From: a virus
Taxonomy: Duplodnaviria > Heunggongvirae > Uroviricota > Caudoviricetes
Length of the DNA: 21,890 bases
Direction: 5' to 3' (one strand)
IMG/VR virus record: IMGVR_UViG_2531839180_000003
Location: 1 to 21,890 of that record
The translations under genes were made by a program, and so were the position numbers. Below are positions 3,519 through 19,317 of this stretch, piece after piece. The first letter of the stretch is position 1; each line of letters starts with the position of its first letter. The notes under the pieces were generated by a model. It was not told where the DNA came from, did not search any database, and was given only the letters and a program-made list of their open reading frames with translations.

Positions 3519-3719
3519 TTGACGGAACACTGGTTAAGGGTGTCGATAAAAATCATCGACCGCAACGCCGGGGAAGGATATGCGAAAGCACATCCCGAAC
3601 TGATTAGCGCATTCATGACAACGGCAGCTGCAAACTTTGCCACGCTGACAGAACGGGAGATTGCCGAAGCGGAACAGGTGACAACCATCAACGTTAAAAC
3701 CGGAGAGCAGACAGCATGA
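3519..3719 (+). CDS. hypothetical small protein (non-ATG start, uncertain)
   Basis: 66-aa ORF starting at TTG. Its stop overlaps the ssb start as ATGA, suggesting coupling. No clear Shine-Dalgarno. Confidence 0.35.
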   Translation: MTEHWLRVSIKIIDRNAGEGYAKAHPELISAFMTTAAANFATLTEREIAEAEQVTTINVKTGEQTA

Positions 3720-4141
3720 CAGCACAGATAGCGGCTTACGGGCGGCTGGTGGCTGACCCGCAGTTAAAGACCACCAGCAAGGGTACACAAATGACGATGG
3801 CTAGTATGGCGGTCCCCCTTCCGTGCAGCCAGGCAGATGACGGAACGGCGATGATGTGGTTATCCGTCCTGGCGTTTGGCAGACAGGCCGACGCACTGGC
3901 AAAACACCACAAAGGCGAACTGGTGAGCGTGGCGGGTAACATGCAGGTAAGCCAGTGGACAGGCCAGAACGGCGAAACGCGGCAGGGCTGGCAGGTTATC
4001 GCAGACAGCGTGATCAGTGCGCGAACAGCGCGTCCGGGCGGCAAAAAAGGCCAGCAGGGGCAGGCCACTGACGCACTGAACAGGGCAAAACAGCAGACGG
4101 GTCAGCACGATGATCCGTACGGGGACAACATACCGTTTTAG
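3716..4141 (+). CDS. ssb: single-stranded DNA-binding protein (SSB)
   Basis: 141 aa. OB-fold-like N-terminus (IAAYGRLVADPQL...), Gly/Gln-rich linker and C-terminal ...DDPYGDNIPF resembling the canonical SSB acidic tip DDDIPF. GGAGAG Shine-Dalgarno upstream. Confidence 0.8.
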   Translation: MTAQIAAYGRLVADPQLKTTSKGTQMTMASMAVPLPCSQADDGTAMMWLSVLAFGRQADALAKHHKGELVSVAGNMQVSQWTGQNGETRQGWQVIADSVISARTARPGGKKGQQGQATDALNRAKQQTGQHDDPYGDNIPF

Positions 4142-4163
4142 CGACAACAGAGGGGACATTCCA

Positions 4164-4406
4164 GTGACATTTGAAGAAGTCCAGCAACATAAAAAGTTTC
4201 ATGATTTTGATGATCTGGAAACCATGACAGCAAAAAAATATCGCCGTCTGCTTTCTTCCGATGCGTTGTTTGTTGTGGATCATCATGATTTTCTGCGTAG
4301 CTCACTGACCGGGGAAATTTTCGCAACCAACCGTGAGCAGGTGGAAGCGATGATCGAATATCTGTGGAAAATAAGGCGCAGAATGCGAGATCCCGTGAAA
4401 CGGTAA
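4164..4406 (+). CDS. hypothetical protein (start ambiguous between ATG 4110 and GTG 4164)
   Basis: Track ORF 4110..4406. The ATG at 4110 overlaps ssb by 32 nt. The in-frame GTG at 4164 is preceded by GAGGGGA. Followed by the terminator at 4415-4443. Confidence 0.4.
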   Translation: MTFEEVQQHKKFHDFDDLETMTAKKYRRLLSSDALFVVDHHDFLRSSLTGEIFATNREQVEAMIEYLWKIRRRMRDPVKR

Positions 4407-4414
4407 AATAATAA

Positions 4415-4443
4415 AGGCCTGGTAAAATCCAGGCCATTTTTTT
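4415..4443. terminator. bidirectional rho-independent terminator between convergent genes
   Basis: Stem AGGCCTGG (4415-4422) / CCAGGCCA (4429-4436), loop TAAAAT, then a T-run to 4443. The upstream A-run gives a U-tract on the opposite strand. Confidence 0.7.
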
Positions 4444-4948
4444 ACAGTAAGCCTATTAGGGCACTTGCGCCAGCCCCAACAATGCTGGCAACGGTACTGT
4501 TTTCCAGTAACTGCTTTAATACTGATTTGGCTTGTACATCCCCCGATTTAGCGACTTTTTCAACCAGTTCAGTGATGCTGATGTTTACCAGCATATGGTT
4601 ATGCTCACCTATCTGCACTTGATCACCACTAATTGAACCAATGTTAAATGTATTACTTTTAGTTGGCGTCATATGTTCATTTCCCGTGATATTTTCAATA
4701 TAGAGAGTCAACATATTTGGATGATTGGTTCCCTGTCTGCGGGTTCCATTGGGAAGCAACTTCATATCTATAATTTTTAGATTTATCTCGTTTTTACCGA
4801 CACGCTGGATAATGTGTTGACCAATAGTTACTTCCGGTTCATTTGTATATGGAATTAATACCTTGTTTTCTTTTGCGTTTCTTTTACCTCTGAATGATTC
4901 GCCATTAATTATGAAAGTATCAGGATATACCATTGCGCTTAAATTCAT
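4442..4948 (-). CDS. hypothetical AT-rich protein with short hydrophobic C-terminal tail (accessory gene candidate)
   Basis: 168-aa ORF and the only minus-strand gene inside the 363-11547 plus-strand block. AAAGGA Shine-Dalgarno upstream. Possible -10 TATTAT / -35 TTTACA on the minus strand at 4980-5010. C-terminus STVASIVGAGASALIGLL. No recognisable family. Confidence 0.65.
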   Translation of the reverse strand: MNLSAMVYPDTFIINGESFRGKRNAKENKVLIPYTNEPEVTIGQHIIQRVGKNEINLKIIDMKLLPNGTRRQGTNHPNMLTLYIENITGNEHMTPTKSNTFNIGSISGDQVQIGEHNHMLVNISITELVEKVAKSGDVQAKSVLKQLLENSTVASIVGAGASALIGLL

Positions 4949-5234
4949 GATGCGTCCTTTGTTGTAGTCAGAGACAGCAATAATAGGCCATGGTTTACTT
5001 CTTTTGTAAATTATTTGTTCGTGTTCTTTCGTGGTTGTTCGGTCTGACTGACAGGTGTTTACATACTGATTTTTATGTATATGTTGGAGCGTGGCACTCA
5101 GACGTGAGCCGCCACAATGCCGCCTGACCCCCTGCGCGATGCCGGGTTGATCTGCGAGATGCCGAGAGTGTCGGGCGGCGCTCCCCCCGTGTTGGTTTCA
5201 CGTCCTGAATCTTAACCAATACGAGAAAACCTTC

Positions 5235-6404
5235 ATGAAGAAATTAATCGAACTCCGCCAGCAAAAAAACGCCCTGAAAAACCAGATGCGATCCCTGCTG
5301 GAAAAAGCCGACAGTGAAAACCGTAGTCTGAACGCTGAAGAAGGCAAACAGTTTGATGAACTGCGTGCAAAAGCTGATGCCCTCGACACAGAAATTTCCC
5401 GCCTCGAGTCTGTGGCTGATGAAGAACGCAGCAAGCCAGGAACGGGCATCCAGAAATTATCATCTGATGAATTGCGTAACTACATCGTAACCGGAGATGT
5501 GCGATCACTGTCCACCAGCACTGACAGCGGCAGGGATGGCGGATATACCGTAATTCCTGAGCTTGATCGCGAAGTCATGCGCCAGCTACAGGATGACAGT
5601 GTTATGCGCGTGATCGCGACCGTGAAGACCGCAAAATCAAATGAGTTTCAGAAACTGGTTTCCACTGGCGGCGCAACTGTAGGACGAGGCACAGAAGGCA
5701 GCGCACGCAGTGAAACCAACACCCCGAAAATTGAACGCGTAACCATCAAGTTGAATCCGATCTACGCCTACCCGAAAACCACGCAGGAAATCCTGGATTT
5801 TTCAGAGGTGGATATTCTGGGCTGGTTATCCTCCGAAATTGCCGACACGTTCGCCAGCACCGAAGAGGATGATTTTGTTAATGGCGACGGTAACGGCAAG
5901 CCGAAAGGCTTCATGGCTTACACCCGTGCGGCGACCAGTGACAAAACCCGCGCTTTTGGCACCATTGAAAAAATAGTAGCGGCAAGTGGAACCGCCATTA
6001 CAGCGGACGAACTGATCGACATTCTCTACAAGCTGAAAGCGAAATACCGCAAAAATGCCGTCTGGGTGATGAACTCGGGCACGGCAGGGACACTACAGAA
6101 GCTGAAAAATGAGAACGGCGATTATATCTGGCGCGACAGCCTTAAAGAAGGTGCGCCGGATATGTTGCTTGGTCGTCCTGTTTACTGCCTGGAGTCCATG
6201 CCGGACATCGGCGCAGGAAAAGCACCGCTAGCGGTTGGCGATTTCAGTCGTGGTTATTTCATCGTTGATCATGTAACAGGGATTCGCACCCGACCGGACA
6301 ACATTACTGAACCCGGATTCTACAAGGTCCACACGGATAAATATCTGGGCGGTGGTGTGGTGGATTCAAACGCCATCAAAATTCTGGAAATGAAAGCTGG
6401 CTAG
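5235..6404 (+). CDS. HK97-family major capsid protein with N-terminal coiled-coil delta domain
   Basis: 389 aa. Coiled-coil N-terminus (LRQQKNALKNQMRSLLEKA...), then capsid body with the NGDGNGKPKG motif matching HK97 gp5 NGDGTG and a conserved C-terminal region. Confidence 0.9.
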   Translation: MKKLIELRQQKNALKNQMRSLLEKADSENRSLNAEEGKQFDELRAKADALDTEISRLESVADEERSKPGTGIQKLSSDELRNYIVTGDVRSLSTSTDSGRDGGYTVIPELDREVMRQLQDDSVMRVIATVKTAKSNEFQKLVSTGGATVGRGTEGSARSETNTPKIERVTIKLNPIYAYPKTTQEILDFSEVDILGWLSSEIADTFASTEEDDFVNGDGNGKPKGFMAYTRAATSDKTRAFGTIEKIVAASGTAITADELIDILYKLKAKYRKNAVWVMNSGTAGTLQKLKNENGDYIWRDSLKEGAPDMLLGRPVYCLESMPDIGAGKAPLAVGDFSRGYFIVDHVTGIRTRPDNITEPGFYKVHTDKYLGGGVVDSNAIKILEMKAG

Positions 6405-6416
6405 TCATGAGTAAGG

Positions 6417-6438
6417 AGGAGGCTGCGGCCTCCTTTTT
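6417..6438 (+). terminator. intrinsic terminator or attenuator immediately after the major capsid gene
   Basis: Stem AGGAGGC (6417-6423) / GCCTCCT (6428-6434), loop TGCG, then TTTT (6435-6438), 13 nt after the capsid stop codon. Confidence 0.55.
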
Positions 6439-6458
6439 CAGCTTTATGGAGTACACCG

Positions 6459-7019
6459 ATGAAAAACACCGATTTTGAAATCCGCACATCTGAACTGACC
6501 GCCAGCAATAAAAAGCTGGTGGGGTATGCCGTTCGCTGGAACAGCCTTTCAGAAATTATCTGGGACGAATTCCGCGAACAGTTCACGCCGGGGGCTTTTG
6601 CTGACTATCTGGCGACGGGTAATGATGTGCGCTGCCTGTATGAGCATGACTATACCCAACTGCTGGGGCGCACCAAATCCGGCACTCTGGTACTGACTGA
6701 GGATAACACCGGGTTACGTTTTGAACTGACACCGCCGGATACCCAGCTTGGAAAAGATGTGCTTACGCTGGTGGAGCGTGGCGACATTACAGGAATGAGC
6801 TTTGGTTTTCGCGCATTATGCGAGGAGTGGAGTATCGCGCAAAAACCGTATCTGCGTACCGTAACCGCCGCTGAACTCCGTGAAATCACAATAACGTCGA
6901 TGCCTGCTTATCCAGAATCTGGCGTGGAGATTGCCCACCGTTCGTTGTTTGCACAGCACCCTGAATTACGTCCGACAGGAAATAATCGTCATCGCTGGTC
7001 TGAGCTGGCGGGGTTGTGA
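6459..7019 (+). CDS. HK97-family prohead protease
   Basis: 186 aa with GGAG Shine-Dalgarno. Motifs such as GMSFGF and the overall pattern fit the prohead serine protease (S78) family. Position is adjacent to capsid and portal. Confidence 0.8.
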   Translation: MKNTDFEIRTSELTASNKKLVGYAVRWNSLSEIIWDEFREQFTPGAFADYLATGNDVRCLYEHDYTQLLGRTKSGTLVLTEDNTGLRFELTPPDTQLGKDVLTLVERGDITGMSFGFRALCEEWSIAQKPYLRTVTAAELREITITSMPAYPESGVEIAHRSLFAQHPELRPTGNNRHRWSELAGL

Positions 7020-7020
7020 T

Positions 7021-8235
7021 ATGTGGTGGCCTTTTAGTCGTAAAAAAAGCGAGCAGCGTAACCTGTCCATTGATGATTTTCTGGCGCTGTCCGGCGTACC
7101 GAATACCGGATCCGGAGAATATGTTTCTGCTGGGACGGCTGAATCATTGCCTGCAGTGATGAATGCGGTTTCTGTCATCGCTGAGGCGGTGGCCACGATG
7201 CCGTGTTATCTGTATCTGGTACGTAATGACAAGGGCAGGGAGGCGCGGGAATGGCTGGACAGTCACCCGGTAGATATTCTGCTGAATGAGCAGCCTAATT
7301 CGTGCCAGACACCTTACCAGTTTAAACGCACAATGATGCGTCACTGCCTGCTGAACGGTAACGCCTATGCGGTTATTGAGTGGGGGCAGGACGGGCAGCC
7401 AAAATCACTTCATCCTTATGCGCCGAGGTGTGTTGTACCGGAACGCACAGGCGCACACAAATACCGCTATACCATCACCGAACCCTGTACAGGAACGGTG
7501 CGCACGTATTTACAGGAAGAAGTTTTGCATCTCCGCTATGCCTCGGATGATGGCTTTCTGGGGCGTTCCCCCGTCACGATTTGCCGTGAGGCGCTGGGGC
7601 TTGGCCTTGCTCAACAGCGTCACGGAGCCAGCATTATGAAAGATGGCATGATGGCGGCAGGGATTATCACGTCAGGCGAATGGCTGGACGGCGTGAAAGG
7701 TAAACAGGCATTGGATGCTCTGGAACGCTACAAGGGGGCGAAAAATGCCGGAAAAACGCCAATCCTTGAAGGGGGCATGGATTACAGGCAACTGGGAATG
7801 AGTAACCAGGATGCGGAATGGCTGGCCTCCCGTCGCTTCTCCATTGAAGACATCGCCCGCATGTTCAACGTATCGCCTATTTTTCTGCAGGAATACAGCA
7901 ACAGCACCTACAGCAATTTCAGCGAGGCAAGCCGCGCGTTTCTGACCATGACAATGCGCCCGTGGCTGGCGAACTTCGAACAGCAAATCAAGGCCGCTTT
8001 GCTGGTGGCTTCTCCCGTACCTGGTACCCGTTATCTGGTTGAGTTTGATTCAGCCGATTTATTACGCGCCACACCCACCGAACGTTATGCCACGTATGAG
8101 AAAGGGATTAAGAACGGGATCATGAATCCGAACGAAGCCCGTGAGCGTGAGGGTATGCCGCCGCGTGAAGGTGGTGATGAGTTCAGCCAGGCATGGAAAC
8201 AGACTGTGGAAATTAAAGGGAGAAAAGATGAGTGA
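7021..8235 (+). CDS. HK97-family portal protein
   Basis: 404 aa from the ATG at 7021, directly after the protease stop (track ORF extends to 6931). Portal-like C-terminal region ...NPNEAREREGMPP. Confidence 0.85.
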   Translation: MWWPFSRKKSEQRNLSIDDFLALSGVPNTGSGEYVSAGTAESLPAVMNAVSVIAEAVATMPCYLYLVRNDKGREAREWLDSHPVDILLNEQPNSCQTPYQFKRTMMRHCLLNGNAYAVIEWGQDGQPKSLHPYAPRCVVPERTGAHKYRYTITEPCTGTVRTYLQEEVLHLRYASDDGFLGRSPVTICREALGLGLAQQRHGASIMKDGMMAAGIITSGEWLDGVKGKQALDALERYKGAKNAGKTPILEGGMDYRQLGMSNQDAEWLASRRFSIEDIARMFNVSPIFLQEYSNSTYSNFSEASRAFLTMTMRPWLANFEQQIKAALLVASPVPGTRYLVEFDSADLLRATPTERYATYEKGIKNGIMNPNEAREREGMPPREGGDEFSQAWKQTVEIKGRKDE

Positions 8236-8530
8236 AGCCAGAATTACACCTGATGAAGTCAGGGCACATCTTCGACTTGATGATGATTTATCCGGTGAAG
8301 GCGAACTTCTGAAAATGTATACCGATGCGGCGCTGGAAGCCTGCCAGAAGCATATCGGGAAACGTTTTGAAGACGGGCTGGAATTTACCCCGGCAATGCG
8401 TGTTGGTTGCCTGATGTACATCGCTTTCCTGTACGAGAACCGGGAAGCGGTTTCACCAGTGGAGCACTCGGAACTGCCTATGGCTATTTCTGCGCTCTGG
8501 TCAGTTTATCGTGACGTAGGGGTGTACTGA
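8228..8530 (+). CDS. gp6-like head-tail connector (head completion) protein
   Basis: 100 aa from the ATG at 8228, overlapping the portal stop as ATGAGTGA, with AGGGAG Shine-Dalgarno. Pattern RAHLRLDDD...AALEA...FLYENRE is typical of phage gp6-like connectors. Confidence 0.7.
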   Translation: MSEARITPDEVRAHLRLDDDLSGEGELLKMYTDAALEACQKHIGKRFEDGLEFTPAMRVGCLMYIAFLYENREAVSPVEHSELPMAISALWSVYRDVGVY

Positions 8531-8970
8531 TGCCGTGGCAACCATTAAGGCGATGCACTGAGCCTGGCTGTAATAAGCGCGTGAAGTCCGGCAAGTGTGA
8601 AGAGCACAGGCGGGCTGCATGGCGTGCAGAGGATGCCAGACGGGGACACCGCCGCGCGCGCGGGTATTCCCGACAGTGGGACAAATACCGCGCCCTGTAC
8701 CTGAGCAAAAACCCGTTATGCGTGCGTTGTCTGGCTAAGGGGATTTATACGCCAGCTCTTGTGGTGGATCACATCATTCCCATCAATGGCGGCGGTGATG
8801 TTCTCTTCTGGCCTGAGTGGAATCACCAGGCATTGTGCCAGACGTGCCACAACCGTAAGACGACACGAGAAGATCCAGCCACGAAAGCAAACCGTAAAGC
8901 GGGCATGTATCGCGAGCAGGAAGAACGGGCGGCACACCGTAACGACTGGATGTATGGCGATGATGACTGA
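8530..8970 (+). CDS. phage-associated HNH endonuclease
   Basis: 146 aa. Cys pairs (CTEPGC, CVRC, CQTCHNRK) and VDHIIP...N...H fit an HNH zinc-binding nuclease. Start overlaps the connector stop as TGATG. Lies upstream of terS as in HK97-type cos phages. Confidence 0.85.
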   Translation: MPWQPLRRCTEPGCNKRVKSGKCEEHRRAAWRAEDARRGHRRARGYSRQWDKYRALYLSKNPLCVRCLAKGIYTPALVVDHIIPINGGGDVLFWPEWNHQALCQTCHNRKTTREDPATKANRKAGMYREQEERAAHRNDWMYGDDD

Positions 8971-9258
8971 ACAGGAGCAAACCAGGCTGATACGTGGACT
9001 GATAAGGCAGCGTGACACATGGAAGACACAGGAGACAGAGCACAAAGCCAACAGGACTGGGCGCACAAAACGCACCACAGCGAAGCGATTAACCGACCGT
9101 GACCGCGAGGTCATGGAATGTTTTCGCAATCGCTGGTGAGGCCGTCAGAGGGGGTGGGGGTGGTTTTCAGGACGAAACCGTCCCTGCCGGACACCGACCG
9201 CCCCCTCAAATTTTTGTGCACGGTAATTTTTTTGAAAATAATTGGGCGAAAAAAGAAC

Positions 9259-9615
9259 ATGGCAAGACCACCAAAAGCCCCCGCTTACCTGGATGAAATC
9301 GCGGTCAGGCAGTGGAAGGAAAAATCGCGCCAGCTTTCCGGGCGGGAAGACCTTACCCCCGCCGACTGGAGCAATCTGGAACTGTATTGCGTTAACTACT
9401 CTATATACCGCAAAGCCGTCGAAGACCTTGCGACGCGCGGGTTCAGCATTGTTAACAGTCAGGGCAGCGAGAGCAGAAACCCCGCACTGAGCGCAAAGGC
9501 TGACGCAGAAAGAATAATGATCAAAATGGCTTCTTTGCTGGGTTTTGACCCGGTAAGCCGTCGCAGAAATCCACCGGAAACAGAGGAAGAGGACGAACTT
9601 GACCGCCTGGCATGA
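9259..9615 (+). CDS. terS: terminase small subunit (P27-family-like)
   Basis: 118 aa from the ATG at 9259; the track ORF from 9118 has a low-complexity N-terminal extension that is probably non-coding. MARPPKAP...LDE...W...LELYC pattern and position directly upstream of terL. Confidence 0.7.
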   Translation: MARPPKAPAYLDEIAVRQWKEKSRQLSGREDLTPADWSNLELYCVNYSIYRKAVEDLATRGFSIVNSQGSESRNPALSAKADAERIMIKMASLLGFDPVSRRRNPPETEEEDELDRLA

Positions 9616-11260
9616 GTACGCAGAAGGCGTAAAAAACGGCAAAATTACGGCCTGTAAACGACTGAAACAGGCTGTTAAACGGTATTTTTCTGACCTTGAA
9701 AACTCCCTTTACACGTTCGATCCGGAGGTCGTGGAGCGGTTTATTGCCTTTTCCCGGGTGTGCCCGCACGTAAAAGGCGCAATGCGCGGTAGCCCCATTG
9801 AACTTGAGCCGTGGCAGCAGTTCGCCTTTGCCTGCATCCTGGGATTTAAGGTTAAGGCCACCGGACGGCGCAAATACACCAGCGCATTCATTGAAGTACC
9901 GCGAAAAAATGCCAAATCCACGGTCGCCGCTATCCTGGCTAACTGGTTTCTGGTTATGGAAAACGGGCAGCAGGATATTTACACCGCCGCCGTGAGTCGT
10001 GATCAGGCGCGGATCGTGTTTGATGATGCGCGTCAGATGTGCCTTTTATCCCGACCGTTACGAAAGCGGGTAAATATTCAGGCGCACAAGGTGATACACC
10101 CGAAAACCAACAGCCTGTTAAAGCCACTGGCAGCAAAAGCGGCAACCATTGAGGGGACAAACCCGAGTCTTGCCATTGTGGATGAATATCACCTGCACCC
10201 AGACAACGGGGTTTATTCCGCACTTGAACTGGGGATGGGGGCGCGTCCGGAGGGGCTGTTATTTGCCATCACCACATCGGGGAGCAACGTTGTTTCAGCC
10301 TGTAAACAACACTACGACTATTGCTGCCAGATACTGGATGGTGAAGAGGTGAACGAATCCATGTTCGTACTGATTTACGAGCTGGATGATGAAAGCGAGG
10401 TTGACGATCCGGCGATGTGGATAAAGGCGAATCCCAATATCGATGTTTCCGTCGATCGTGAAAAACTGGCCTCAACCATCCAGAAAGCGCGGGGTATTCC
10501 GTCGCAGTGGGTGGAAATGCTCACCAAGCGATTCAATATCTGGTGTCAGGGGGCTACGCCGTGGATGGGTAACGGTGCATGGGCGGAGTGCGCCGGAACG
10601 TTCGCTGAGGCGGATTTATACGGGCAGGAGTGCTATGCGGGGCTGGACTTATCATCAACCAGCGATATTTCCAGCGTGTGCTATGCCTTTCCGGTCGGTA
10701 AAAAGATTATGCTGGTTTCACGTCACTATCTACCGGAATTTCAGCTACAGAACCCTGCCAATAAAAACCGCGCCATCTATCGCCAGTGGGCAAAGGCGGG
10801 CTGGATACGCACAACACCGGGTGACTGCATTGATTATGACCGTATCCGTGATGACATCATGGCGGATGCAGAGAATTTCAATATCAGGCTGGTGGGTTTC
10901 GATACATGGAACGCCACGCACCTGAGGACGCAGCTACAGGGAGCGGGATTTGAGGTGGAGCCGTTCCCGCAAACGTACCTTCGTTTTAGTCCGGCGGCGA
11001 AATCGTTCGAAGTTTTTGTTAACCGGAAGGTGATTGTTCATCGTGGTGATCCGGTGCTGGCCTGGTCAATGAGTAATGTTGTGATGCAGAGTGACGCGAA
11101 CGCCAATATCAAGCCGAACAAGAAAAAATCATCCAATAAGATAGACCCGAGCGTTGCGGCGCTGATGGCGTTTGGCACATTCCAGGCTGAGCATGAGGAA
11201 TTTGCATTTGATATGAGCGACAGCCAGAAAGAGCGACTTGCGGCATTTGATGGGGTATGA
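9599..11260 (+). CDS. terL: terminase large subunit
   Basis: 553 aa from a TTG start at 9599, preceded by GAGGAAGAGGA, overlapping terS by 17 nt. ATPase N-terminal domain and nuclease C-terminal domain pattern typical of Terminase_1-type large subunits. Confidence 0.9.
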   Translation: MTAWHEYAEGVKNGKITACKRLKQAVKRYFSDLENSLYTFDPEVVERFIAFSRVCPHVKGAMRGSPIELEPWQQFAFACILGFKVKATGRRKYTSAFIEVPRKNAKSTVAAILANWFLVMENGQQDIYTAAVSRDQARIVFDDARQMCLLSRPLRKRVNIQAHKVIHPKTNSLLKPLAAKAATIEGTNPSLAIVDEYHLHPDNGVYSALELGMGARPEGLLFAITTSGSNVVSACKQHYDYCCQILDGEEVNESMFVLIYELDDESEVDDPAMWIKANPNIDVSVDREKLASTIQKARGIPSQWVEMLTKRFNIWCQGATPWMGNGAWAECAGTFAEADLYGQECYAGLDLSSTSDISSVCYAFPVGKKIMLVSRHYLPEFQLQNPANKNRAIYRQWAKAGWIRTTPGDCIDYDRIRDDIMADAENFNIRLVGFDTWNATHLRTQLQGAGFEVEPFPQTYLRFSPAAKSFEVFVNRKVIVHRGDPVLAWSMSNVVMQSDANANIKPNKKKSSNKIDPSVAALMAFGTFQAEHEEFAFDMSDSQKERLAAFDGV

Positions 11261-11265
11261 CGAGA

Positions 11266-11547
11266 ATGACTGAAACTGATCTACTAAAAATAATTCGCCG
11301 CATTACCGGAATCAGTCAGCAGCCTGACGAACAGGCTACACAGCCGGACAGCGTGATAGCCGAAAATTACGCGCGTGTGGTGGCTGAGGTAATGCGCCGT
11401 GACGGTATTGAGCTTAACGGCGTGGATATGCGCAACATACGAACCAGAGTTCTTGAGTTGCTGGCATACCGTCGCCGTTCTCAACAACGGAGGGAGAGCG
11501 CGAAAAATACTTACCAGTGGAGGAAGCCGGAGCACTTACGGCGGTAA
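11266..11547 (+). CDS. hypothetical protein
   Basis: 93 aa from the second in-frame ATG just after the terL stop. No recognisable motif. Confidence 0.4.
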   Translation: MTETDLLKIIRRITGISQQPDEQATQPDSVIAENYARVVAEVMRRDGIELNGVDMRNIRTRVLELLAYRRRSQQRRESAKNTYQWRKPEHLRR

Positions 11548-11564
11548 CTGGTTGATATTACCGA

Positions 11565-11773
11565 AAGTGCAAAAATGCACTTAGCAACTGGTGGCGAGTT
11601 GCAGATCTGCAACTCGACTATGAAACTACCCGTAGTTTGGGTAGTAAGAGTAACACCCAGATTTTGGGGCTTACTCGCGATACCCAAATAAAGGGTATCG
11701 GTGTAAGAAATATCGTTTCTCATATGTGAGCACCGAGGGCGGAATTCCGCCTTCGGTTACTTATTGTGCTCAT
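11565..11773. repeat. array of five inverted repeats including a 22-bp perfect palindrome
   Basis: Hairpin AAGTGCA/TGCACTT (11565-11582). Perfect palindrome CGAGTTGCAGATCTGCAACTCG (11595-11616). CTACCC/GGGTAG (11627-11644). CGATACCC/GGGTATCG (11678-11700). Nested hairpin 11726-11773 with core CCGAGGGCGG-AATT-CCGCCTTCGG (11733-11756). Confidence 0.6.
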
Positions 11774-12152
11774 GCACAGGGAGGGGCGGGTCAAATCTCT
11801 GTACCCTGACGTCTTCCGGACTGCCAGCCCCATCGATTTTTTATACCCGCGAAAAATGAAAAACGCTTCACGCTGGTGGGCCTGATGCCGATATGGTGAG
11901 CCACATACCGGAAATATCCACCAGCACGGCAACGGCAGAATAGCCACAACACAGAAAACCCACGAATATGGGGTTTTTGTTATGGCATGGTCATGATGAC
12001 CGCCCCTGCTCTGAATGGTGGAAATCACCACGCAGATCATCCACCAGCTTCATGACGGATAGCCGGAAAATGATAACGGTTACGCAAAACCCCCAGCAAA
12101 TTTCCCTTTTGTTTGTTATTGTTCGTCGTTGTTCGTAGAGCTTCAACGAAAT

Positions 12153-12176
12153 GTGTGGTCAGTTGTGTGGTCAGTT
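12153..12176. repeat. tandem direct repeat TGTGTGGTCAGT x2 upstream of int
   Basis: Exact 12-mer at 12153-12164 and 12165-12176. Also GTTCGT x2 at 12121-12136. Located 190-250 bp upstream of the integrase start. Confidence 0.6.
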
Positions 12177-12368
12177 TTGAGGCTTTTAATTTATGCATTC
12201 TTAAAAACTTATTTATTATCAATTACTAACAGGAATTAGTAAGAAATACCCGTATTACCTGATCTGGATAATGCCAGCGTAGTCCTGGCGATTATTCAAG
12301 ATAAAATCAAAGACTTATCTGCGATTTTCGAACCGTTTTGTTTAGCCGATCACATCGAGGCTCACAAA

Positions 12369-13727
12369 ATGGGACACCAGACCATACGCCACACCATTAA
12401 ACGTAACGGGGTTTATTACGTTCGTTTCCGCCTGCCTGATAATAAGTTTTTCCGTAAGTCGTTAGAGACTGACAGCCACACCCAGGCGCAGTTGCTCATG
12501 TCTTTTGCTTCTCCTGTAATTCCTCTGGTTCAACGTGGAGCTATCCAACCGGATCACTTCGGTAAGCGTCTTTCTGAGTATGGCAATAGTCTGAAGCAGC
12601 AGAATGAACAATGGCTGGCGCACCAATTTCTGAATGATGCGCGGCGCAATATTCAGCCGATAGTTGTTCATGAAGACCGCGAGGTTGTCTCTCCTTCGGT
12701 AGATGAGGAAGAACAAACTGAAGCACAACCAGAACACGTGTTAACACTGGCTGGCGCGTGGAATATGTATAAAGAGGAGAAAGCCCAAAACTGGACGAAG
12801 GCTATCTCTCAAGCCAATGAGCGCTTTATGGAGGTGATGTTGATTGTCTTGGGTTCATCAACTGATGTAACCACGATTACCAAGCAAGACATTAAACAGG
12901 TAATGGAGGTTGTTGAAAACTTGCCTAAGCGTGTTGTGCAGCCTTATCGGTCAATGACGGTTCAGCAACTGATCGAGTGTGATGATGTTCCGCCAGAAGA
13001 TTTGGTTGGCGCTGAGTCTATCCACAAGCATTTGAAGATTTACAAATCGCTGTTTAAAACCTTCCTGACAGACAATAAAGATATTCTGGAGAAGTCTCCG
13101 ACTGATGGGATCGTCGCCGCACCGTCGAAAACGAGGTTTGGAGCATACAGTGCAGCAGAAATGAGAAAGTTTGTGGGGTGGGCGCTCAGGCAGCCTGACG
13201 GTTGGCAGAAGTGGATCACTCTTTTGTTGGCGTACACGGGAGCCAGAAGAGGCGAGATCGCAAAGCTGGAAAAATCTCATATCAAATATGATGAGGATAG
13301 TCAGCGGCACTATCTCCTTATCGCGGAAGGAGGACAGGGGAAAACTGAGAACGCGACTAGACAGGTTGTAATACATCCCAAACTGATCGAATGGGGATTC
13401 CTTGATTTTGTAAACCGCCAATGGAAAGAGAAAATATTCTCGCCTGTGTCGGGTAAGAACATGCCGAAGATCGGCAAAGTTTTAGCAGATGTGCGTGATC
13501 AGCTTGGTATTCCTTATCTTGATGACTATGGGCAGCGGCGATTGGTGCATAGCTTCCGACATACCATGATTTCAACCTGTTTAGCTGGCTGGGTTGGCAA
13601 CTTAGCGCACTTGCAGCAGGTTGTAGGGCATGAGAAAAGCGGGGCAGGGATCACTAGAAGATACTTACACATTTTTCCTCTGAAAACTGTGTGTTACGTC
13701 ATTGATGGATTGTGTTGGAATGGCTAA
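12369..13727 (+). CDS. int: tyrosine recombinase (phage integrase family)
   Basis: 452 aa with GAGG Shine-Dalgarno. Catalytic signature elements TGARRGE (Arg I), HSFRHT (HxxR box II) and GHEKSGAGITRRYLH (His...Tyr). Confidence 0.85.
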   Translation: MGHQTIRHTIKRNGVYYVRFRLPDNKFFRKSLETDSHTQAQLLMSFASPVIPLVQRGAIQPDHFGKRLSEYGNSLKQQNEQWLAHQFLNDARRNIQPIVVHEDREVVSPSVDEEEQTEAQPEHVLTLAGAWNMYKEEKAQNWTKAISQANERFMEVMLIVLGSSTDVTTITKQDIKQVMEVVENLPKRVVQPYRSMTVQQLIECDDVPPEDLVGAESIHKHLKIYKSLFKTFLTDNKDILEKSPTDGIVAAPSKTRFGAYSAAEMRKFVGWALRQPDGWQKWITLLLAYTGARRGEIAKLEKSHIKYDEDSQRHYLLIAEGGQGKTENATRQVVIHPKLIEWGFLDFVNRQWKEKIFSPVSGKNMPKIGKVLADVRDQLGIPYLDDYGQRRLVHSFRHTMISTCLAGWVGNLAHLQQVVGHEKSGAGITRRYLHIFPLKTVCYVIDGLCWNG

Positions 13728-13837
13728 TAATTTGGGTGATGTCATAGTTTTACTGAATTTTCAGTGATATAAATCATGTAAAAATAAGGTGTTCTACGTA
13801 AGGCTATTTTTCTATACACAGCTAGCATAAAGGATTA

Positions 13838-15286
13838 ATGATGTTTATTAAAAAACTGAAGATAGAAAATTTTAAAGGGTATCACGGGGAAGATAATGAG
13901 TTGGAATTCAATATCCCTGATGGAGAAACGGAAGGTAGTGGACTTAATATATTTGTGGGTGAAAACAACGCCGGAAAATCCACTGTATTTGAAATTATAG
14001 ATTTTATAAAGGATGGAACCAAAAAGAACATTGAGGATCTTATATGCAAATCAGACCCGGCTAATATTGCTGAGAAGCTTTCAGCCGAGCTAACCTTCAC
14101 TGGAAACTTATCAGAAGTAATTGCCGCTCATGTACAAGCTAATAAAGTTGCAGCATTCACCTCGCATGTTTTTGAGGACGAGGGTGTTAATTATTTCAGA
14201 GTGAAGAGGTGTAGTGAGGTAGGGGAGAAGAAAATATTATTTTGGAACGGAAATGAATTTGTTAACCCAAGTGGTATAGATGCCCCATTTAAGAAGTTTT
14301 ATGATAATAACTTCATTTGGGCTGATACAAACCCAAGCAATGAAGCAAAGTTTGGCTCTACAACTATATGTGGTTCGCTTCTAAAAGAAATTGCTTTAGG
14401 CCATATTGAAACGGATGAGTATAGAGCGTTTTCTGAGCAATATCATCGCGTATTCAATCATCCTGAATCTGAGTTGAGACAAAAAATATCATTAGTCGAA
14501 GATCAAGTTAGAACAGTTTTTTCATCTCAATTTGGCATGGCAGATATTTCTTTCATTTTTGAGGAGTTGCAGGTAGAGAATTTCTTCAAAACTATTTCCA
14601 TCATGATTGATGATGGGGTGAATGTCCCAATGGGCGAAAAGGGGCATGGAATGCAAAGGGCACTAGCCCTATCATTACTTCAGGTGTATGCTGACATAAC
14701 GTGTAATGCGCATGGCGCTGGGATTAGCAAACCATTTTATCTTTTCATTGATGAACCTGAAATATGTCTTCATCCATCAGGCCAGCAGAAGCTTTTAGAA
14801 GCTTTAATGATTATCTCCAAAAGCAGACAGGTTTTTGTCACAACGCATTCGCCTTTCCTTTTATCTTCCCCTTATCTTAAAAATGTTGGCTTGTTTGTTT
14901 TCAAAAAAGAAAATAATAAGAATGTTGTGGAGAGAGCTGATACTTCTCCATGGTTCCCTTGGTCTCCATCGTGGGGGGAGATTAATTTCAAAGCATACAA
15001 TTTAGCAACCGTTGAATTGCATAATGAATTATATGGTTATTTGCAGGAAAAAAACTCCTGTCCGAGCGAAAAAGCAATGGAACAATGGCTAAATTCAAAT
15101 GGAATTGCATTTGATAAAGTATGGGTTAGAGAATTTAAAGGTGCAGCACAACCGCCAGCGGATACTACATTACAAACATTCATCCGTAATCACATACACC
15201 ACCCAGAGAATGTTACAATGCAATCTAATCGCTATACACAACAAGAATTACTAACTTCAATCCAACAAATGGTTGGTCTTCTATAA
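13838..15286 (+). CDS. ABC-type ATPase of the OLD/AAA_15-like class with unassigned ~140-aa C-terminal domain
   Basis: 482 aa. N-terminus KKLKIENFKGY, Walker A GENNAGKST, signature-like GHGMQRALALSL, Walker B/D-loop LFIDEPEICLHP, H-loop VTTHSP. No Toprim-like acidic motifs seen in the C-terminus, which contains RNHIHH (about residues 450-455). Visibly AT-rich. Own upstream intergenic region and own terminator. Confidence 0.8.
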   Translation: MMFIKKLKIENFKGYHGEDNELEFNIPDGETEGSGLNIFVGENNAGKSTVFEIIDFIKDGTKKNIEDLICKSDPANIAEKLSAELTFTGNLSEVIAAHVQANKVAAFTSHVFEDEGVNYFRVKRCSEVGEKKILFWNGNEFVNPSGIDAPFKKFYDNNFIWADTNPSNEAKFGSTTICGSLLKEIALGHIETDEYRAFSEQYHRVFNHPESELRQKISLVEDQVRTVFSSQFGMADISFIFEELQVENFFKTISIMIDDGVNVPMGEKGHGMQRALALSLLQVYADITCNAHGAGISKPFYLFIDEPEICLHPSGQQKLLEALMIISKSRQVFVTTHSPFLLSSPYLKNVGLFVFKKENNKNVVERADTSPWFPWSPSWGEINFKAYNLATVELHNELYGYLQEKNSCPSEKAMEQWLNSNGIAFDKVWVREFKGAAQPPADTTLQTFIRNHIHHPENVTMQSNRYTQQELLTSIQQMVGLL

Positions 15287-15291
15287 AGAAA

Positions 15292-15320
15292 AAGGCGAGC
15301 CCTTTGGCTCGCCTTTTAAT
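15292..15320. terminator. bidirectional rho-independent terminator between convergent genes
   Basis: Stem AAGGCGAGCC (15292-15301) / GGCTCGCCTT (15306-15315), loop CTTT, then TTTTAAT. The upstream A-run gives a U-tract for the minus strand. Confidence 0.75.
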
Positions 15321-15321
15321 A

Positions 15322-15513
15322 TTAATTTAATAACTTGCGCTTTTTAGATAATAGCACACTTAAAGCATATTCAAACCCGTGTTGCGCCTCTAGACGGCAT
15401 AGGGTGATATTACAGATCCCCAACTCCTTACACAGCGCCTTTCGGTTAATTACCTCCGCCGCGCCAGATACATAGACTTGACCAGCGCCGGGGATATTGA
15501 TTGAAACTTTCAT
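15322..15513 (-). CDS. hypothetical small protein, possibly a truncated head-module gene
   Basis: 63-aa ORF with GAGGT Shine-Dalgarno. Lies directly downstream of the E-like capsid gene and abuts the terminator and the AT-rich int/ATPase segment. Confidence 0.4.
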   Translation of the reverse strand: MKVSINIPGAGQVYVSGAAEVINRKALCKELGICNITLCRLEAQHGFEYALSVLLSKKRKLLN

Positions 15514-15603
15514 GTGTTACCTCAGTGTAAAAGTAAAAATGAATATAACCGGAAGATATAACCCCCAGCCGTACCGGAAGGGCGCGACCGGGGGAAATGT
15601 GCA

Positions 15604-16632
15604 TTACTTCAGCGTGATAGTTGTAAGCCACTGAGGACGAAGCAGAAGAGGCAACAGAGAAAACTCTGACTGCATTTTAATCATCCCGTCATCGTCTACG
15701 CTGGTCCAGGCGTAGCGATCCTTAACGCCCCCCTTGACGGCCAGGCTTTGATTTCTGCTGCATGGCCCTGAAATTTTGCGCAAAAATGAATAATCGGAGT
15801 CGGTCATACGTGGGACAACCAGACCGGAGTTCTCACTCACCTTGTAAGTAGGGTCACCAGCCAGATCGACAAAGGTTACAGGACCCAGCGACATGGTATT
15901 AAAACCACTAAGCGCGTTAGGGATAACCACGCCGGAGATCTGCGCCTGCTGGACGCTGTGCAGAATAAATGCTTGGATCTCTTTGTTGGTGGCAATGACA
16001 TCATAGAGACCAGAATCACACAGGACATACAGACGGTCGCTATAGTTGCGGGCCGCGCCTAGCGCCTGGGAAACCTGGCGACGCAGTTTAGCAAGCTGTT
16101 GGTAAATAGAGGCATCCACGGAAGCATCCAGGGTGAAGGAAGCCGGGGAGGTCCCGAACACCTGATCGAAGGAGATGTCGCCGTCATCGGTATGGGGTGC
16201 GCTCACCTTACGCTCAAAGAGGGCCTCCGCCAGAGAAGTTTCCACAGTTCGGCGATAATCCTTTTCGAACTGTACAGCACGCTTGCTGATAACTTCAGTT
16301 ATTGCCATATCCTGATTAGTTGTTGGACTGATCAGCCCCTGCCAATCATGCGGGCGCACAAAGGCAGTCTCATGTACGACTGGGATCTCGGCATCACGGA
16401 AAACAGCGGTCGCCGCTTTCTGGTGGTTGGTGTCGGTGCCGTAGCGCGACACGGTTTCCAGTTTGGAATCTTCCGCATCAGTAATATCACTCACACGGGC
16501 ATTAGGGACGCTAGAGGAGCCTTTAGCGAACAGGTTCAAATCCTGAAGCAGGTAAGAGCCTTGTTTAGAATCCTTGATAGTTGCTACAAGGTCGAGCCCC
16601 TCATAGGTATTTTTAATATCTTTAACGCTCAT
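15604..16632 (-). CDS. major capsid protein, lambda gpE family
   Basis: 342 aa with GGAGG Shine-Dalgarno. C-terminal ...DRYAWTSVDDDGMIKMQSEFSLLPLL aligns by eye with lambda gpE ...ARYPKNWVTTGDPAREFTMIQSAPLMLL. Length matches gpE (~341 aa). Confidence 0.8.
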   Translation of the reverse strand: MSVKDIKNTYEGLDLVATIKDSKQGSYLLQDLNLFAKGSSSVPNARVSDITDAEDSKLETVSRYGTDTNHQKAATAVFRDAEIPVVHETAFVRPHDWQGLISPTTNQDMAITEVISKRAVQFEKDYRRTVETSLAEALFERKVSAPHTDDGDISFDQVFGTSPASFTLDASVDASIYQQLAKLRRQVSQALGAARNYSDRLYVLCDSGLYDVIATNKEIQAFILHSVQQAQISGVVIPNALSGFNTMSLGPVTFVDLAGDPTYKVSENSGLVVPRMTDSDYSFLRKISGPCSRNQSLAVKGGVKDRYAWTSVDDDGMIKMQSEFSLLPLLLRPQWLTTITLK

Positions 16633-16634
16633 TA

Positions 16635-16994
16635 TTAAGCCTCCATGCTGTTGTTATTGCCAATACGAATAGAACCATCTGCCGTTAGTCGCTTGATTGC
16701 TTCTTTCAGGGAGGCGGCATCTTTGGCGCGGAGGTTGAACGTGTTCATATATGCCAATCTGTCAACCACAACGATTGTCTTATTGTCGCCTGCGGAGACA
16801 TCTACCAGACAGATCAGAGGGGAGCCCTCGACAGCCTGATCGAACAATTCGTAGGTTTCAGCATTGAATACATCGCCACAGAATAGATCCGCTGGGACAG
16901 TGGCCCCTTTGATCTCGGTGCGGGAGAAGAGGTCGGAGGCGCTGTTAACCAGCACATCTGACATTCGTTTAGGGAACGACTCAGAAGTACGCAT
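16635..16994 (-). CDS. putative head decoration protein (lambda gpD-like position)
   Basis: 119 aa from the internal ATG at 16994 with AAGGAAA Shine-Dalgarno; the track N-terminal extension is low complexity. Sits immediately upstream of the gpE-like gene with a 2-nt gap. Similarity to gpD itself is not evident by eye. Confidence 0.45.
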   Translation of the reverse strand: MRTSESFPKRMSDVLVNSASDLFSRTEIKGATVPADLFCGDVFNAETYELFDQAVEGSPLICLVDVSAGDNKTIVVVDRLAYMNTFNLRAKDAASLKEAIKRLTADGSIRIGNNNSMEA

Positions 16995-18300
16995 AAAGGT
17001 TTTCCTTATGGAGGGTTTTAGACGTGGAGAGAGTCCACAGGGTGATCCGGTGCAACGCCGGATATAAGGACCGCCACAGAGGACAATCCGAATGATTGGA
17101 AGATGGGAGGCCGTGGATTGAATAGAAGAGGGCGGCATCATGCCGCCCTTTCTAATCTGGCTCTCTCTCACCCTCGCAGGGTGGGGGGAGGTGTAAACCT
17201 CTTTTTAGTGGTCACTCACCCGCCAGCGTCACGGGAGCAACCGCCAGCCAATGGGCAAATAACCACAAAAAAGAACCCGGAAGGAGACACCGGGATGAAG
17301 GCAATGTAACTTACTGTCTGATCACTTGTTTTCCTGTGTAGCCTCAGAGCCTTACATTATTTGCTTTCATGGTTCAGCAAAGAAGCCACAGAGGAAAACG
17401 GACGCCTGAAATACGCCCGGAAACCATCGAAGAAAATCAATAGTTTATCGTTGCAACTGGGGAACCACCCCGGCCCAACTGTGGACCCCGTGGAGGGTCG
17501 CTACAATCGAGGAGATCGCTTGTATTCTGAAGGGCCGCAGTTAGCGACGCTTTAGAATAGGGTCTGTGGCGCAAGCCCTATGATTAGAGGCGTTTTGAAT
17601 CATAGGAGTGTCATCAACTGGCGGAACTTGAGGAGTGGACCGCACACAAAGCATTCTGGCAAGTGGAGTTGAAAGAACGCTTTGGGTGAGGGCCGGGGCG
17701 GGGGAGAAGTCCGCCCGGCTCACTCAGTACAGACCCACAGGGGCTGGCTAAAGCACATGTTAATGAAAGTTCTGTACAGGTGTGAGGCGGTAAGCTGCAA
17801 AACGGCGATTTCGACATCCTCACCACATCACACACCATGAATACTATGTTATCACAAATGAGAATTATTATCAACAAGTATTAATTGCATTCCTCTTTTA
17901 TTTGTGGTCTTGCGTGGCTTCCCCACATATTGGGAAGAGAGGCAAATCAATTTTTATTAACTGGCGGGTAGGTTGTGGGTTTACATGTTGGCACTTTTGA
18001 CAACAAACCATGTAGCCCAAAAGGCACACAAGAGTATATAACTACATAAAACCTCGCTACGCTCGCCCTCCGGGCTACGGTTTTATTGATCTTATATTAT
18101 AACTTCATTCAATAACTAATTGTTTACACAATTAATTATTTCATTCGTTATAATGTGTTCTTGAAACCTTCCCGCCCTTCCGGGCTTACCAGGTTTTAGG
18201 CCGTTGGCCTGTTTTCCACAGTGTGGAGGCTCGCCTGTGTGGCTCACTCCAGGCAGGGACCCCGGAAATATTTTCCGGCCTGGGGTGTATCAATTTGAAA

Positions 18301-18346
18301 CAGGGGGGTGTGTCAGAATGACACAGGGGTGTGTCAAAATGGCACA
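18301..18346. repeat. tandem pair of dyad-symmetric sites (operator or iteron candidate)
   Basis: CAGGGGGGTGTGTCAGAATGACAC (18301-18324) and CAGGGGTGTGTCAAAATGGCACAC (18325-18346). Each contains GTGTCA-N3-TGACAC-like dyad symmetry. Flanking direct repeat ATAAGACTAA at 18349-18358 and 18374-18383. Confidence 0.55.
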
Positions 18347-18761
18347 CAATAAGACTAATTATAAAACTAACCCATAAGACTAACACCCAGGGCCAGGTCA
18401 AGACCTTTAAGGGAGTGTTGGGAAATCGTAGATTGATTGGTAAGAGACTGATCTCTTTAAGCGTCCTACAGACGCGCCTCTTTGGCAGCGCTCGCACCAG
18501 CGAGCAAGACCCCTTTGGAACACCGCACGATGTAAGGTGACCTCTGGGCGGCGGGGTGGCGGGCCCCCGGCCCGGTACACAGTGCCGCACAGCGTACAGA
18601 ACCACAAGCAGCAGAAGCCCCTAAACGCGCCGCTGTGGCGCTCTCTCATACGTAGAAAAGGAAACACCCTATAAACGCCCTCCGGCGCTCTGAGAGCCTT
18701 ACAGGGGGGCTGTGCATTTAGCACAATAAACAACCGAATGCAAGCGAATGCAAAAATATTC

Positions 18762-18790
18762 TTGCATTTTCATGTAAAATGGTGTAAAAT
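18762..18790 (+). promoter_or_regulatory. sigma70-like promoter with ATGCAA/TTGCAT repeats for the rightward operon
   Basis: -35 TTGCAT at 18762-18767, 17-nt spacer, -10 TAAAAT at 18785-18790. Direct repeats AATGCAA at 18737-18743 and 18747-18753 with inverted copy TTGCATT at 18762-18768. Confidence 0.45.
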
Positions 18791-18864
18791 AGATACCGTG
18801 ATGAGGTGGGTGGTTTGATATAAAAATCCCCATCATAATATAACGCACCTAACCGGAGAATGCA

Positions 18865-19290
18865 ATGAGTATTTACCTTGATGTTGAAAAAATGGTTGAA
18901 CGTATCGATCAGCGTGATTTGAGTCGTTCAACTCTTCAGGGACAACGTAGCCGATTCAAAGCCGCCGGGCGTACCGCTGAAGTGGAAGCAATCGGCAAGG
19001 CTCTGGAGATGACCAAATCCAGCGCCTCCGGCGTCCTCCGCCAGTCTCAGCGCCTTGCCACCAAAATTACAGAGATGGACGCAGAGAAAGCATTAGAGCT
19101 TAAAGCAACCGTTGCGCTGTTCGCTTCCAAGTCTACGGATCTGCAAGCCTCTATTGTGCTGGCTTTCCAATCCTTCTTTGAGGTTAAAGGTGTAACCCTG
19201 GACCACGATGAGGTGATGGCCCTGTTAATGTTGAAAGCATCAGCGGATTTTGAGGACATGACAGGCGAGCTACCAATTATTGTACATTAA
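18865..19290 (+). CDS. hypothetical protein
   Basis: 141-aa ORF with GGAGA Shine-Dalgarno. First gene downstream of the promoter at 18762-18790. Confidence 0.5.
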   Translation: MSIYLDVEKMVERIDQRDLSRSTLQGQRSRFKAAGRTAEVEAIGKALEMTKSSASGVLRQSQRLATKITEMDAEKALELKATVALFASKSTDLQASIVLAFQSFFEVKGVTLDHDEVMALLMLKASADFEDMTGELPIIVH

Positions 19291-19317
19291 TCAGTAACTT
19301 AATTTGGGAGGGTAACA

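Follow-up and report, generated by a model that had tools for sequence, protein, structure and literature searches.

Phage-inducible chromosomal islands (PICIs), which are widespread, drive gene transfer and interfere with phages, and work on them has so far been almost all on proteins. Several described systems come close to the non-coding sequence analysed here. The repetitive extragenic palindromic sequences and bacterial interspersed mosaic elements (REP/BIME) of the RIP/RIB type, which bind integration host factor (IHF), combine short palindromic units in a mosaic with an IHF-consensus motif, just 3' of the last gene of an operon with which they are co-transcribed. Hairpins of this kind reportedly stabilise the upstream mRNA. 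Terminators at the ends of phage operons, such as lambda tI/sib, place a structured RNA between a transcription unit and the attachment (att) site, whereas lambda nut sites (boxA and boxB, served by the arginine-rich N protein) lie behind a promoter. Other neighbours in kind are the structured non-coding RNAs of P4-related satellites (P4 CI RNA with seqA/seqC, and C4/IsrK) and the cos sites of PICIs and lambda (cosQ-cosN-cosB, with the IHF site I1). The sequence in question lies in a window of 21,890 nucleotides, the whole of the DNA analysed, which is the IMG/VR virus record IMGVR_UViG_2531839180_000003 (Caudoviricetes). At positions 11548-11775, directly downstream of orf93 (11257-11547, + strand), the last gene of the late operon for capsid and packaging of a PICI, the DNA can fold into a row of hairpins. 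We found that about 13% of complete Escherichia coli genomes carry a non-coding module of this type at the right end of a PICI, and that it is better conserved than the gene that adjoins it. In kind, the module resembles 3'-end clusters of stem-loops and terminators and REP/BIME mosaics with IHF sites.

The distribution of the module was determined with a 253-bp stretch as query against 5,426 complete E. coli genomes. It matched 704 of them, 446 over at least 80% of its length, at 1 to 6 places per matching genome (median 1). At every locus examined, the module stood directly 3' of an orf93 homologue, on the same strand and at the right end of a PICI. Its carriers are capsid-forming PICIs (cf-PICIs) and classical PICIs of the Rpp/lambda-cos type, the latter with capsid or decoration genes plus a Nu1-like or DUF1441 gene and in some cases embedded in prophage late genes. 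These elements are inserted at thiM, tqsA/ydgV, fis-dusB, clpS, yejO and ung-tRNA, and inside prophage terminase or capsid genes; the module is common to PICIs that differ in integrase, att site and packaging system, with at least seven att sites represented. PICIs at thiM, clpS, ung-tRNA and fis are colinear to about 325 nt past the stop codon of orf93, and beyond that point (about 11870 in the window) the sequence diverges by att site or cargo. Judging from these alignments, the shared non-coding module is about 325 nt long and extends from 11545 to about 11870, and the palindrome-rich stretch singled out in the original prediction is its first two thirds. The concern raised there, that the region might not be conserved in related elements, did not materialise: conservation is strong, in about 700 E. 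coli genomes.

A second concern was that the palindromes might be part of a known repetitive element. Like REP/BIME, the module consists of short palindromic units combined with an IHF-consensus motif just 3' of an operon's last gene, with which it would be co-transcribed. However, its sequence is unrelated to the REP Y/Z consensus, it has a 110-nt invariant core that REPs lack, and it is not dispersed over the chromosome: it occurs in a fraction of the genomes, at six places at most, and all inspected copies lie at PICI right ends. We therefore rejected membership of the REP/BIME family.

Outside the E. coli chromosome, searches of 50,697 phage records (megablast and blastn) returned nothing beyond a borderline 39-nt match in Yersinia T7-like phages (E = 2e-3), which we judged to be due to chance. 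Sampling was widened by a protein-pattern scan of 185,579 species genomes, which gave at least one locus, and in IMG/VR a 14-mer scan, whose matches were mostly random, was replaced by a 19-mer scan. Three records came from the plasmid collection, namely the circle of an excised PICI, a chromosome filed there by mistake and the 32.6-kb CP088587.1, and these matches do not support a reading of the module as an origin of transfer. The excised circle NZ_CP148328.1 (10,790 bp), deposited as a non-mobilizable E. coli plasmid, carries int, alpA, a primase, a protease-capsid fusion, DUF1441 and orf93. In this circle, int follows about 460 bp downstream of the module, and the two are co-oriented. Three other module-bearing PICIs (L005, L008 and L010) sit inside prophage late genes (terminase gpA, major capsid), a 'helper-embedded PICI' configuration that has been described before (PMC10111431). 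The module itself is not described in the literature on cf-PICIs, Rpp and cos, the PICI census, helper-embedded PICIs, PICIs and IHF, or the SpLE2 small RNA (sRNA), and a full-text literature search for the palindrome sequence returned no description of it either.

The stretch 11548-11775 folds into seven hairpins in a row (11549-11773). As + strand RNA, its predicted free energy is -99.6 kcal/mol, compared with -58.9 +/- 4.6 kcal/mol for dinucleotide shuffles (z = -8.8); the - strand RNA (z = -9.1) and a fold with DNA parameters (z = -8.6) depart from their shuffles to a similar degree. Folded one at a time, all seven hairpins are stabler than their own shuffles, with z = -2.8 for H5b and -3.5 to -5.9 for the other six. 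The original prediction had counted five consecutive inverted repeats; the array is indeed real and non-random, but by folding it has seven members. H1 (11565-11582, + strand; z = -4.0) has a 7-bp stem, AAGTGCA/TGCACTT, with an AAAA loop, and is the window's copy of a repeated unit made of a motif and a hairpin. H2 (11591-11621) has as its core (11595-11616) the perfect 22-bp palindrome CGAGTTGCAGATCTGCAACTCG with a central GATC, whose arms are 100% complementary, as had been claimed. H3 (11625-11645, + strand; z = -3.6) has an 8-bp stem, and H4 (11648-11676, + strand; z = -3.5) is built in two tiers, GAGTAA/TTACTC outside and CCCA/TGGG inside. H5 (11678-11700, + strand; z = -5.1) has the 8-bp stem CGATACCC/GGGTATCG, and H5b (11701-11725, + strand) is weak and AU-rich (AGAAA/TTTCT).

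The last hairpin, H6 (11726-11773, + strand), has a GC-rich inner stem (11732-11757) within an outer GAGCAC/GTGCTC stem, followed by the U-rich TTACTTATTGT. In the inner inverted repeat, the two arms of 13 nt match each other at 92% and contain one G-T, in agreement with the earlier report of a single-G-T stem near 11733-11756. The inner stem has 11 pairs, eight of them G-C, and a 4-nt loop, as expected of an intrinsic terminator stem (at least 5 bp, GC-rich, with a short loop); with the outer stem, H6 reaches -26.8 kcal/mol (z = -5.9), and a terminator scan flags it as terminator-like on the + strand. For the rest of the common module (11774-11870, + strand), the fold gives a branched GC hairpin, a T6 run (11837-11842) and an AU hairpin. 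Farther downstream, outside the module, there is a bidirectional terminator-like hairpin (11951-11975: A-run, short stem, T-run). A 16-nt inverted repeat (11548-11563 and 11909-11924) was considered as a closing helix or as the end of a miniature inverted-repeat transposable element and was dropped, as it is not kept in relatives.

Sequence comparison separates two kinds of hairpin in this array. The alignment that had been proposed, weighing compensatory change against strict palindrome conservation, gave both outcomes: H1 compensates and H2 is conserved as sequence. For H1, we compared 20 distinct units, namely the first-position hairpins and the repeated units of motif and hairpin from other loci. 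In these, 90% of the cells of the stem pair, against at most 36% with slid partners; five of the seven pairs show compensatory, double-sided change, and none of 500 shuffles reaches the covariation score. The hairpin begins 5-8 nt after the motif and its loop holds only A and T across lineages, while the stem differs from lineage to lineage (GTGCA, ACGCA, GCGCA, GCCCA, GCTCA, TTCGCC, CCTCA, CCCCC and others). Altogether there are 40 distinct hairpins at a fixed distance from the motif, many of them with unrelated stems. Moreover, the units are repeated two to four times in many PICIs, and one distant element (L262) has four different stems. Since unrelated complementary stems share one position, several of them within one element, a folded single strand is favoured over a duplex bound by a dimeric protein; and because the DNA of PICIs is double-stranded both in replication and in packaging, the single strand is more likely to be RNA. 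At least one hairpin, H1, keeps its pairing by compensatory change, as a folded single strand would. Compensatory changes, the usual sign of a conserved RNA structure, were found in H1 and in two pairs of H5.

As to the strand, the stem of H1 shows 14 G-U against 2 A-C, which favours the + strand, and one relative (L261) has three further + strand G-U pairs in H2 and H6. A permissive, strand-symmetric count of mismatches over all weak hairpins (81 against 64) was too noisy to use. The evidence for the + strand, drawn from these comparisons, is modest. A second class of units, absent from the window, was seen downstream of orf93 in many PICIs: CTAACCCGYTGATWYTTYC is followed by a 5-bp stem (CCTCA/TGAGG, CCCCC/GGGGG or CAGCC/GGCTG) whose loop is ATT or AAC; an outer stem often closes the unit, and two to four units are stacked (L262 3260-3700, L004 5750-5990, L192 and L193).

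Unlike H1, the core from H2 to H5 (11593-11703) is nearly invariant, loops included, among 42 distinct variants. It is 93-97% identical to the window where the DNA of orf93 is only 76-86% identical. Within the 42 variants, the H2 palindrome changes from GATC only to GATT or AATT, apart from one arm change in L005. In L261, the palindrome has one G-T. H2 to H4 are invariant and hence give no evidence on pairing either way. In H5, relatives show the basal pair as C-G, U-G or U-A and have C-G in place of an inner A-U, and relatives of H6 keep a stable stem with different sequences. The near-invariance of the core, loops included, implies a further sequence-specific partner, a protein or an RNA. 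The window itself departs from the other 41 variants in one respect: it is without one 9-nt GAAACTACG repeat before H3 (11620-11630), which amounts to an in-frame, repeat-mediated deletion. In another relative (L105, about 5500-5560), the sequence that follows the palindrome and ATGAAACT is replaced by four tandem 12-nt repeats, GCATGTATTGCA.

The motif that precedes H1 overlaps the stop codon of orf93. This conserved 13-nt sequence (11545-11557) reads TAACTGGTTGATA on the + strand and TATCAACCAGTTA on the - strand, where it is a perfect match to the IHF consensus WATCARNNNNTTR. The window holds five matches to this consensus, with 1.56 expected. Most relatives retain this match, and across them most of the varying positions of the motif are N or R positions of the consensus. 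However, position 12 of the + strand motif varies (T/A/G) in about one third of the units, and positions 5, 14 and 15 are invariant despite being free in the consensus.

We favour the reading, tentatively and at a little short of an even chance, that the module serves the late operon of the PICI as a structured 3' untranslated region (UTR) and terminator and has a further, sequence-specific role besides. The module would be transcribed together with the late operon as its 3' UTR and would fold into independent stem-loops. A promoter scan found no promoter-like site between orf93 and the module on either strand, so late transcripts should enter the module on the + strand. H6 and the later T-run hairpins might stop or attenuate the late transcript, which would thereby be kept out of att and int in the excised circle, or out of host genes (thiMD) in the prophage. 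H1 to H5b might act as barriers to 3' exonucleases that stabilise the late mRNA, and may be released as a stable structured RNA. Termination is supported by a classical PICI (L006), where a canonical terminator on the + strand follows 77 nt past the stop codon. The likeness to lambda tI/sib would lie in a structured RNA between a transcription unit and att, in an effect that depends on the integrated or circular state, and in the GC-rich stem and U-rich tail of H6. In contrast, sib is an RNase III site and affects int transcripts that come through att from the int side, whereas the module lies upstream of int in the circle, belongs to a late operon and offers RNase III no long duplex.

If the module controls late termination or stability, it would set the output of the satellite's capsid and packaging proteins. 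It would also decide whether late transcription leaks into int or host genes, which matters at the split thiM riboswitch described below. Either way, the module offers a concrete target of about 325 bp for experiment.

Several observations weigh against the 3' UTR and terminator. The tail of H6, TACTTATTGT, passes the terminator scan with five T in eight, yet its U-tract is interrupted, and the T6 run at 11837-11842 sits 5 nt off its stem. For the EDL933-type island L004, the terminator scan flagged none on the + strand downstream of orf93, and in L262 two unit hairpins resemble - strand terminators. The case for the + strand is also modest on wider counts: the strand-symmetric wobble count over the 40 motif-linked hairpins favours it by 12 against 4 (p ~0.08), and over the whole region G-U occurs at 23 pair positions and A-C at 18. 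The + strand fold is the stabler one in 55 of 75 variants, by a mean of -7.6 kcal/mol, but this figure is confounded by G+T skew. In addition, a generic role in termination or stabilisation leaves the loop-level invariance of H2-H5 and the H2 palindrome unexplained, and the IHF consensus over the stop codon points to a role at the DNA level.

Such a DNA-level site is the serious rival, although we consider it unlikely as a whole. It supposes that IHF bends 11545-11557 and that a PICI or host protein binds H2 and its neighbours, in a nucleoprotein complex that serves some DNA transaction which all these PICIs share, such as an enhancer of excision and integration, an enhancer of replication or a packaging-related site. 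It would account for the perfect IHF match with its variation mostly at N or R positions, for a palindrome conserved as sequence and not via covariation, and for a core more conserved than the adjoining gene. Moreover, two of the other consensus matches fall in sensible places, one in the replication origin and one beside the att junction of a second island. H2 is a candidate for a protein-binding palindrome, sequence-invariant rather than covarying, with a perfect IHF consensus 40 bp upstream. However, the stems of the H1 type covary via unrelated sequences, even inside one element, unlike a duplex site for a dimeric protein, and about one third of the repeated units (TGAAC, TGAGA) break the IHF core. 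If the module is a protein-bound site, as RNA or as DNA, it would count as a new cis element, one that the engineering of PICI-based delivery vehicles requires.

A fixed arm site for an integrase was rejected, as the module accompanies many integrases at no fewer than seven att sites and its distance to the att core varies, from about 370 bp to the junction in L008 to about 700 bp in the window. Nor is it a P4-type ori or crr: type I iterons cluster at 3200-3440 only, with none near 11565. That cluster is the replication origin of the PICI, with at least 10 direct and inverted TGTTCACC repeats, which is the P4 alpha type I iteron sequence, and an IHF consensus at 3249, directly downstream of the D5_N/Pox_D5 primase-helicase. 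The partition-like site of the original prediction found no support, the P4-type iterons of the element being those at 3200-3440. A cos site, too, would be non-coding, next to packaging genes, with an IHF consensus and dyad symmetry; but the lambda cosN sequence GGGCGGCGACCT does not occur in or near the stretch with up to two mismatches allowed, and the module is common to PICIs of different packaging systems. The classical PICI L006 has two copies of cosN upstream of orf93, and published maps put cos before rpp (PMC9026076). In the window, a G-rich non-coding gap (9140-9258; GGGGGTGGGGGTGG...CCGCCCCCTC) lies between a small open reading frame (ORF) after HNH and terS, and it is likely the cos of the HNH-dependent packaging module.

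Improbable, but worth stating, is a device of RNA and protein. A structured PICI RNA of about 220-320 nt would derive from the 3' end of the late operon, the orf93 product would bind its units, and the core would act on the helper or the host; a satellite-encoded device of this sort, nut/N-like or anti-helper, is of a type not yet described for PICIs. The arginine-rich C-terminus of the orf93 product makes nucleic-acid binding a reasonable suggestion. The protein matches PHROG phrog_1561 (E = 3e-52), a family for which no function is given; it has no Pfam or NCBIfam match and is hypothetical in RefSeq, and when 1.8 billion proteins are clustered at 50% identity, its family comprises just 42 clusters. 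AlphaFold gives a helical model of moderate confidence (predicted local distance difference test 69.5), which has no significant fold match in BFVD. The layout recalls lambda nut, with a single-stranded motif, a short spacer and a 5-7-bp hairpin with an A-rich loop, next to a gene whose product has an arginine-rich C-terminal helix; we do not claim homology to N. Unlike in nut, however, the loops here are AAAA, AAAT or AATT tetraloops instead of GNRA-like pentaloops, and the units lie at the 3' end of an operon instead of after a promoter. A lambda-type nut site was rejected, as the motif, TAACNNNYTGATATT, lacks the boxA consensus CGCTCTTA and the loops are of 3-6 nt, A/T only.

We give similarly little credence to a functionless mosaic of recombination scars or selfish mini-repeats, in which tandem units of gene end and hairpin accumulate as REP/BIME do in host intergenic regions and the conserved TAAC..TGATATT joint promotes exchange between co-resident PICIs. 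The units are indeed duplicated two to four times in varying order and number, and some carry remnants of the 3' end of orf93 (GGCGGTAAC...). One identical orf93 allele was found in PICIs at four att sites, so that this end must recombine frequently, and the H2-H5 core is missing in some family members (L262 and L013). Yet the hairpin potential is kept through many compensatory changes, the core has held its identity beside a diverged gene, and the position of the module at the stop codon is fixed in all elements. Compensation, core conservation and fixed position together indicate purifying selection.

Somewhat more doubtful still is a processed, trans-acting sRNA. In this case, an RNase E cut in the AU-rich motif after the stop codon would release some 220-320 nt, from H1 to H6 or the T-run, and the invariant core would pair with or sequester a helper-phage or host target. 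The layout is that of 3' UTR-derived sRNAs, with an AU-rich single-stranded motif, stem-loops and a terminator-like hairpin; the loops of the core are invariant, as in seed regions, and the AUAUU of the motif fits the RN/WUU preference of RNase E. On the other side, the core is almost wholly base-paired, with little single-stranded seed, and some relatives lack it. The search for a known sRNA family also came out negative: none of 4,227 Rfam covariance models reached the gathering threshold in the whole window, and none matched 11545-11870 even at E = 10. ARAGORN found no tRNA or tmRNA genes. P4 CI RNA and C4/IsrK would be the obvious relatives, being structured non-coding RNAs of P4-related satellites, and the element in the window has a P4-type primase and the TGTTCACC iterons. 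However, C4 and IsrK have no match in Rfam searches anywhere in the window, and the module differs from these RNAs in both position and sequence; where C4/IsrK families have been reported, in some PICIs, their place is the early (Bro/eta) region (PMC10111431).

A small protein is very improbable. The original prediction held that no ORF with a ribosome-binding site covers the region, which is only roughly right: a 23-codon ORF, MKLPVVWVVRVTPRFWGLLAIPK, can be read on the + strand over H3-H5 (11620-11691) and two mechanical ORFs exist on the - strand (11511-11723 and 11720-12040). The 23-codon ORF is probably not coding. A gene starting at ATG 11620 would encode 23-26 amino acids, more in EDL933-type islands, and H2 might serve as a translational operator that brings an upstream GGTGG near the start codon. 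H2 followed by ATGAAA is kept where the downstream sequence differs (L006 and L105), the 9-nt indel preserves the frame, a hand count scores about 7 of 16 substitution events as synonymous, and the RefSeq pipeline (PGAP) annotates a 52-aa ORF over the homologous core in one relative (L012). Nevertheless, a canonical Shine-Dalgarno sequence with normal spacing is absent, L032 has lost the start codon, and in L005 the frame stops early, at codon 14. In relatives the frame has 26 codons, and its stop is not conserved (TAA, TAT, TAC, TTT), the peptide is without a family or evident fold, and RefSeq leaves it unannotated in most genomes, including the identical island of strain SMS-3-5, where nothing is annotated over the stretch.

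Scarcely credible, finally, is the reading of the original prediction that the palindromes are att-accessory, partition or regulatory sites serving the integrase at 12369-13727: this gene is nearby and the stretch is palindrome-rich, but the integrase lies in a second island that begins at 12283, hundreds of genomes have the module without that island, and the arm-type repeats are elsewhere.

The genomic setting makes this clear. The DNA of the window is E. coli chromosome. The window from 1 to 12282 is 99% identical to E. coli strain SMS-3-5, in which an island between rcnR and thiM carries an integrase, AlpA-type regulators, a P4-like primase, SSB, the major capsid protein, a prohead protease, portal, connector, HNH, TerS (P27 family), TerL and a hypothetical gene of 93 aa. 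A cf-PICI has this complement of genes (bioRxiv 10.1101/2022.09.08.507074). The window from 1 to 12241 is the right part of a cf-PICI satellite inserted in the thiamine pyrophosphate (TPP) riboswitch of thiM; its own int is at the far left end of the element, outside the window. Compared with the empty site of K-12, host sequence resumes at 12242, with the att identity block AGAAATACCCGTAT at 12242-12256 (also at about 5626 in L003). Positions 12242-12282 (+ strand) are thiM leader of the host, the 3' half of the TPP aptamer. Owing to the insertion, about 15 kb separate thiMD from the 5' half of the aptamer upstream of it, and presumably also from its promoter; beside thiM, only a half-riboswitch match persists (23 bits).

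Homology to SMS-3-5 ends at 12282, after which that single-island strain runs on into thiM. In the window, the second island (12283-21890) is inserted there, 41 bp deeper in the same riboswitch. As this island begins where the SMS-3-5 homology has ended, the integrase at 12369-13727 is assigned to the neighbouring element, and the placement of the stretch 'between packaging module and integrase' was misleading: an island boundary (12242-12256; 12283) separates the two. This tyrosine integrase has a weak Pfam match. It is followed by an OLD/AriA-like ATPase (13838-15286; PADLOC Old, 1.5e-45), and the island also has helix-turn-helix proteins and several ORFs without a family. This second element, which lies in tandem with the PICI, probably represents a defence island.

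The cf-PICI has candidate integrase sites of its own on the far side of the module. Two tandem copies of TGTGTGGTCAGT (12152-12175, + strand) are likely arm-type sites of the cf-PICI integrase. A block of about 70 bp with two copies of TTGTTCGT followed by two of TGTGTGGTCAGT occurs on both sides of the att core, in attR at 12110-12175 and in attL upstream of int (5760-5815 in L003).

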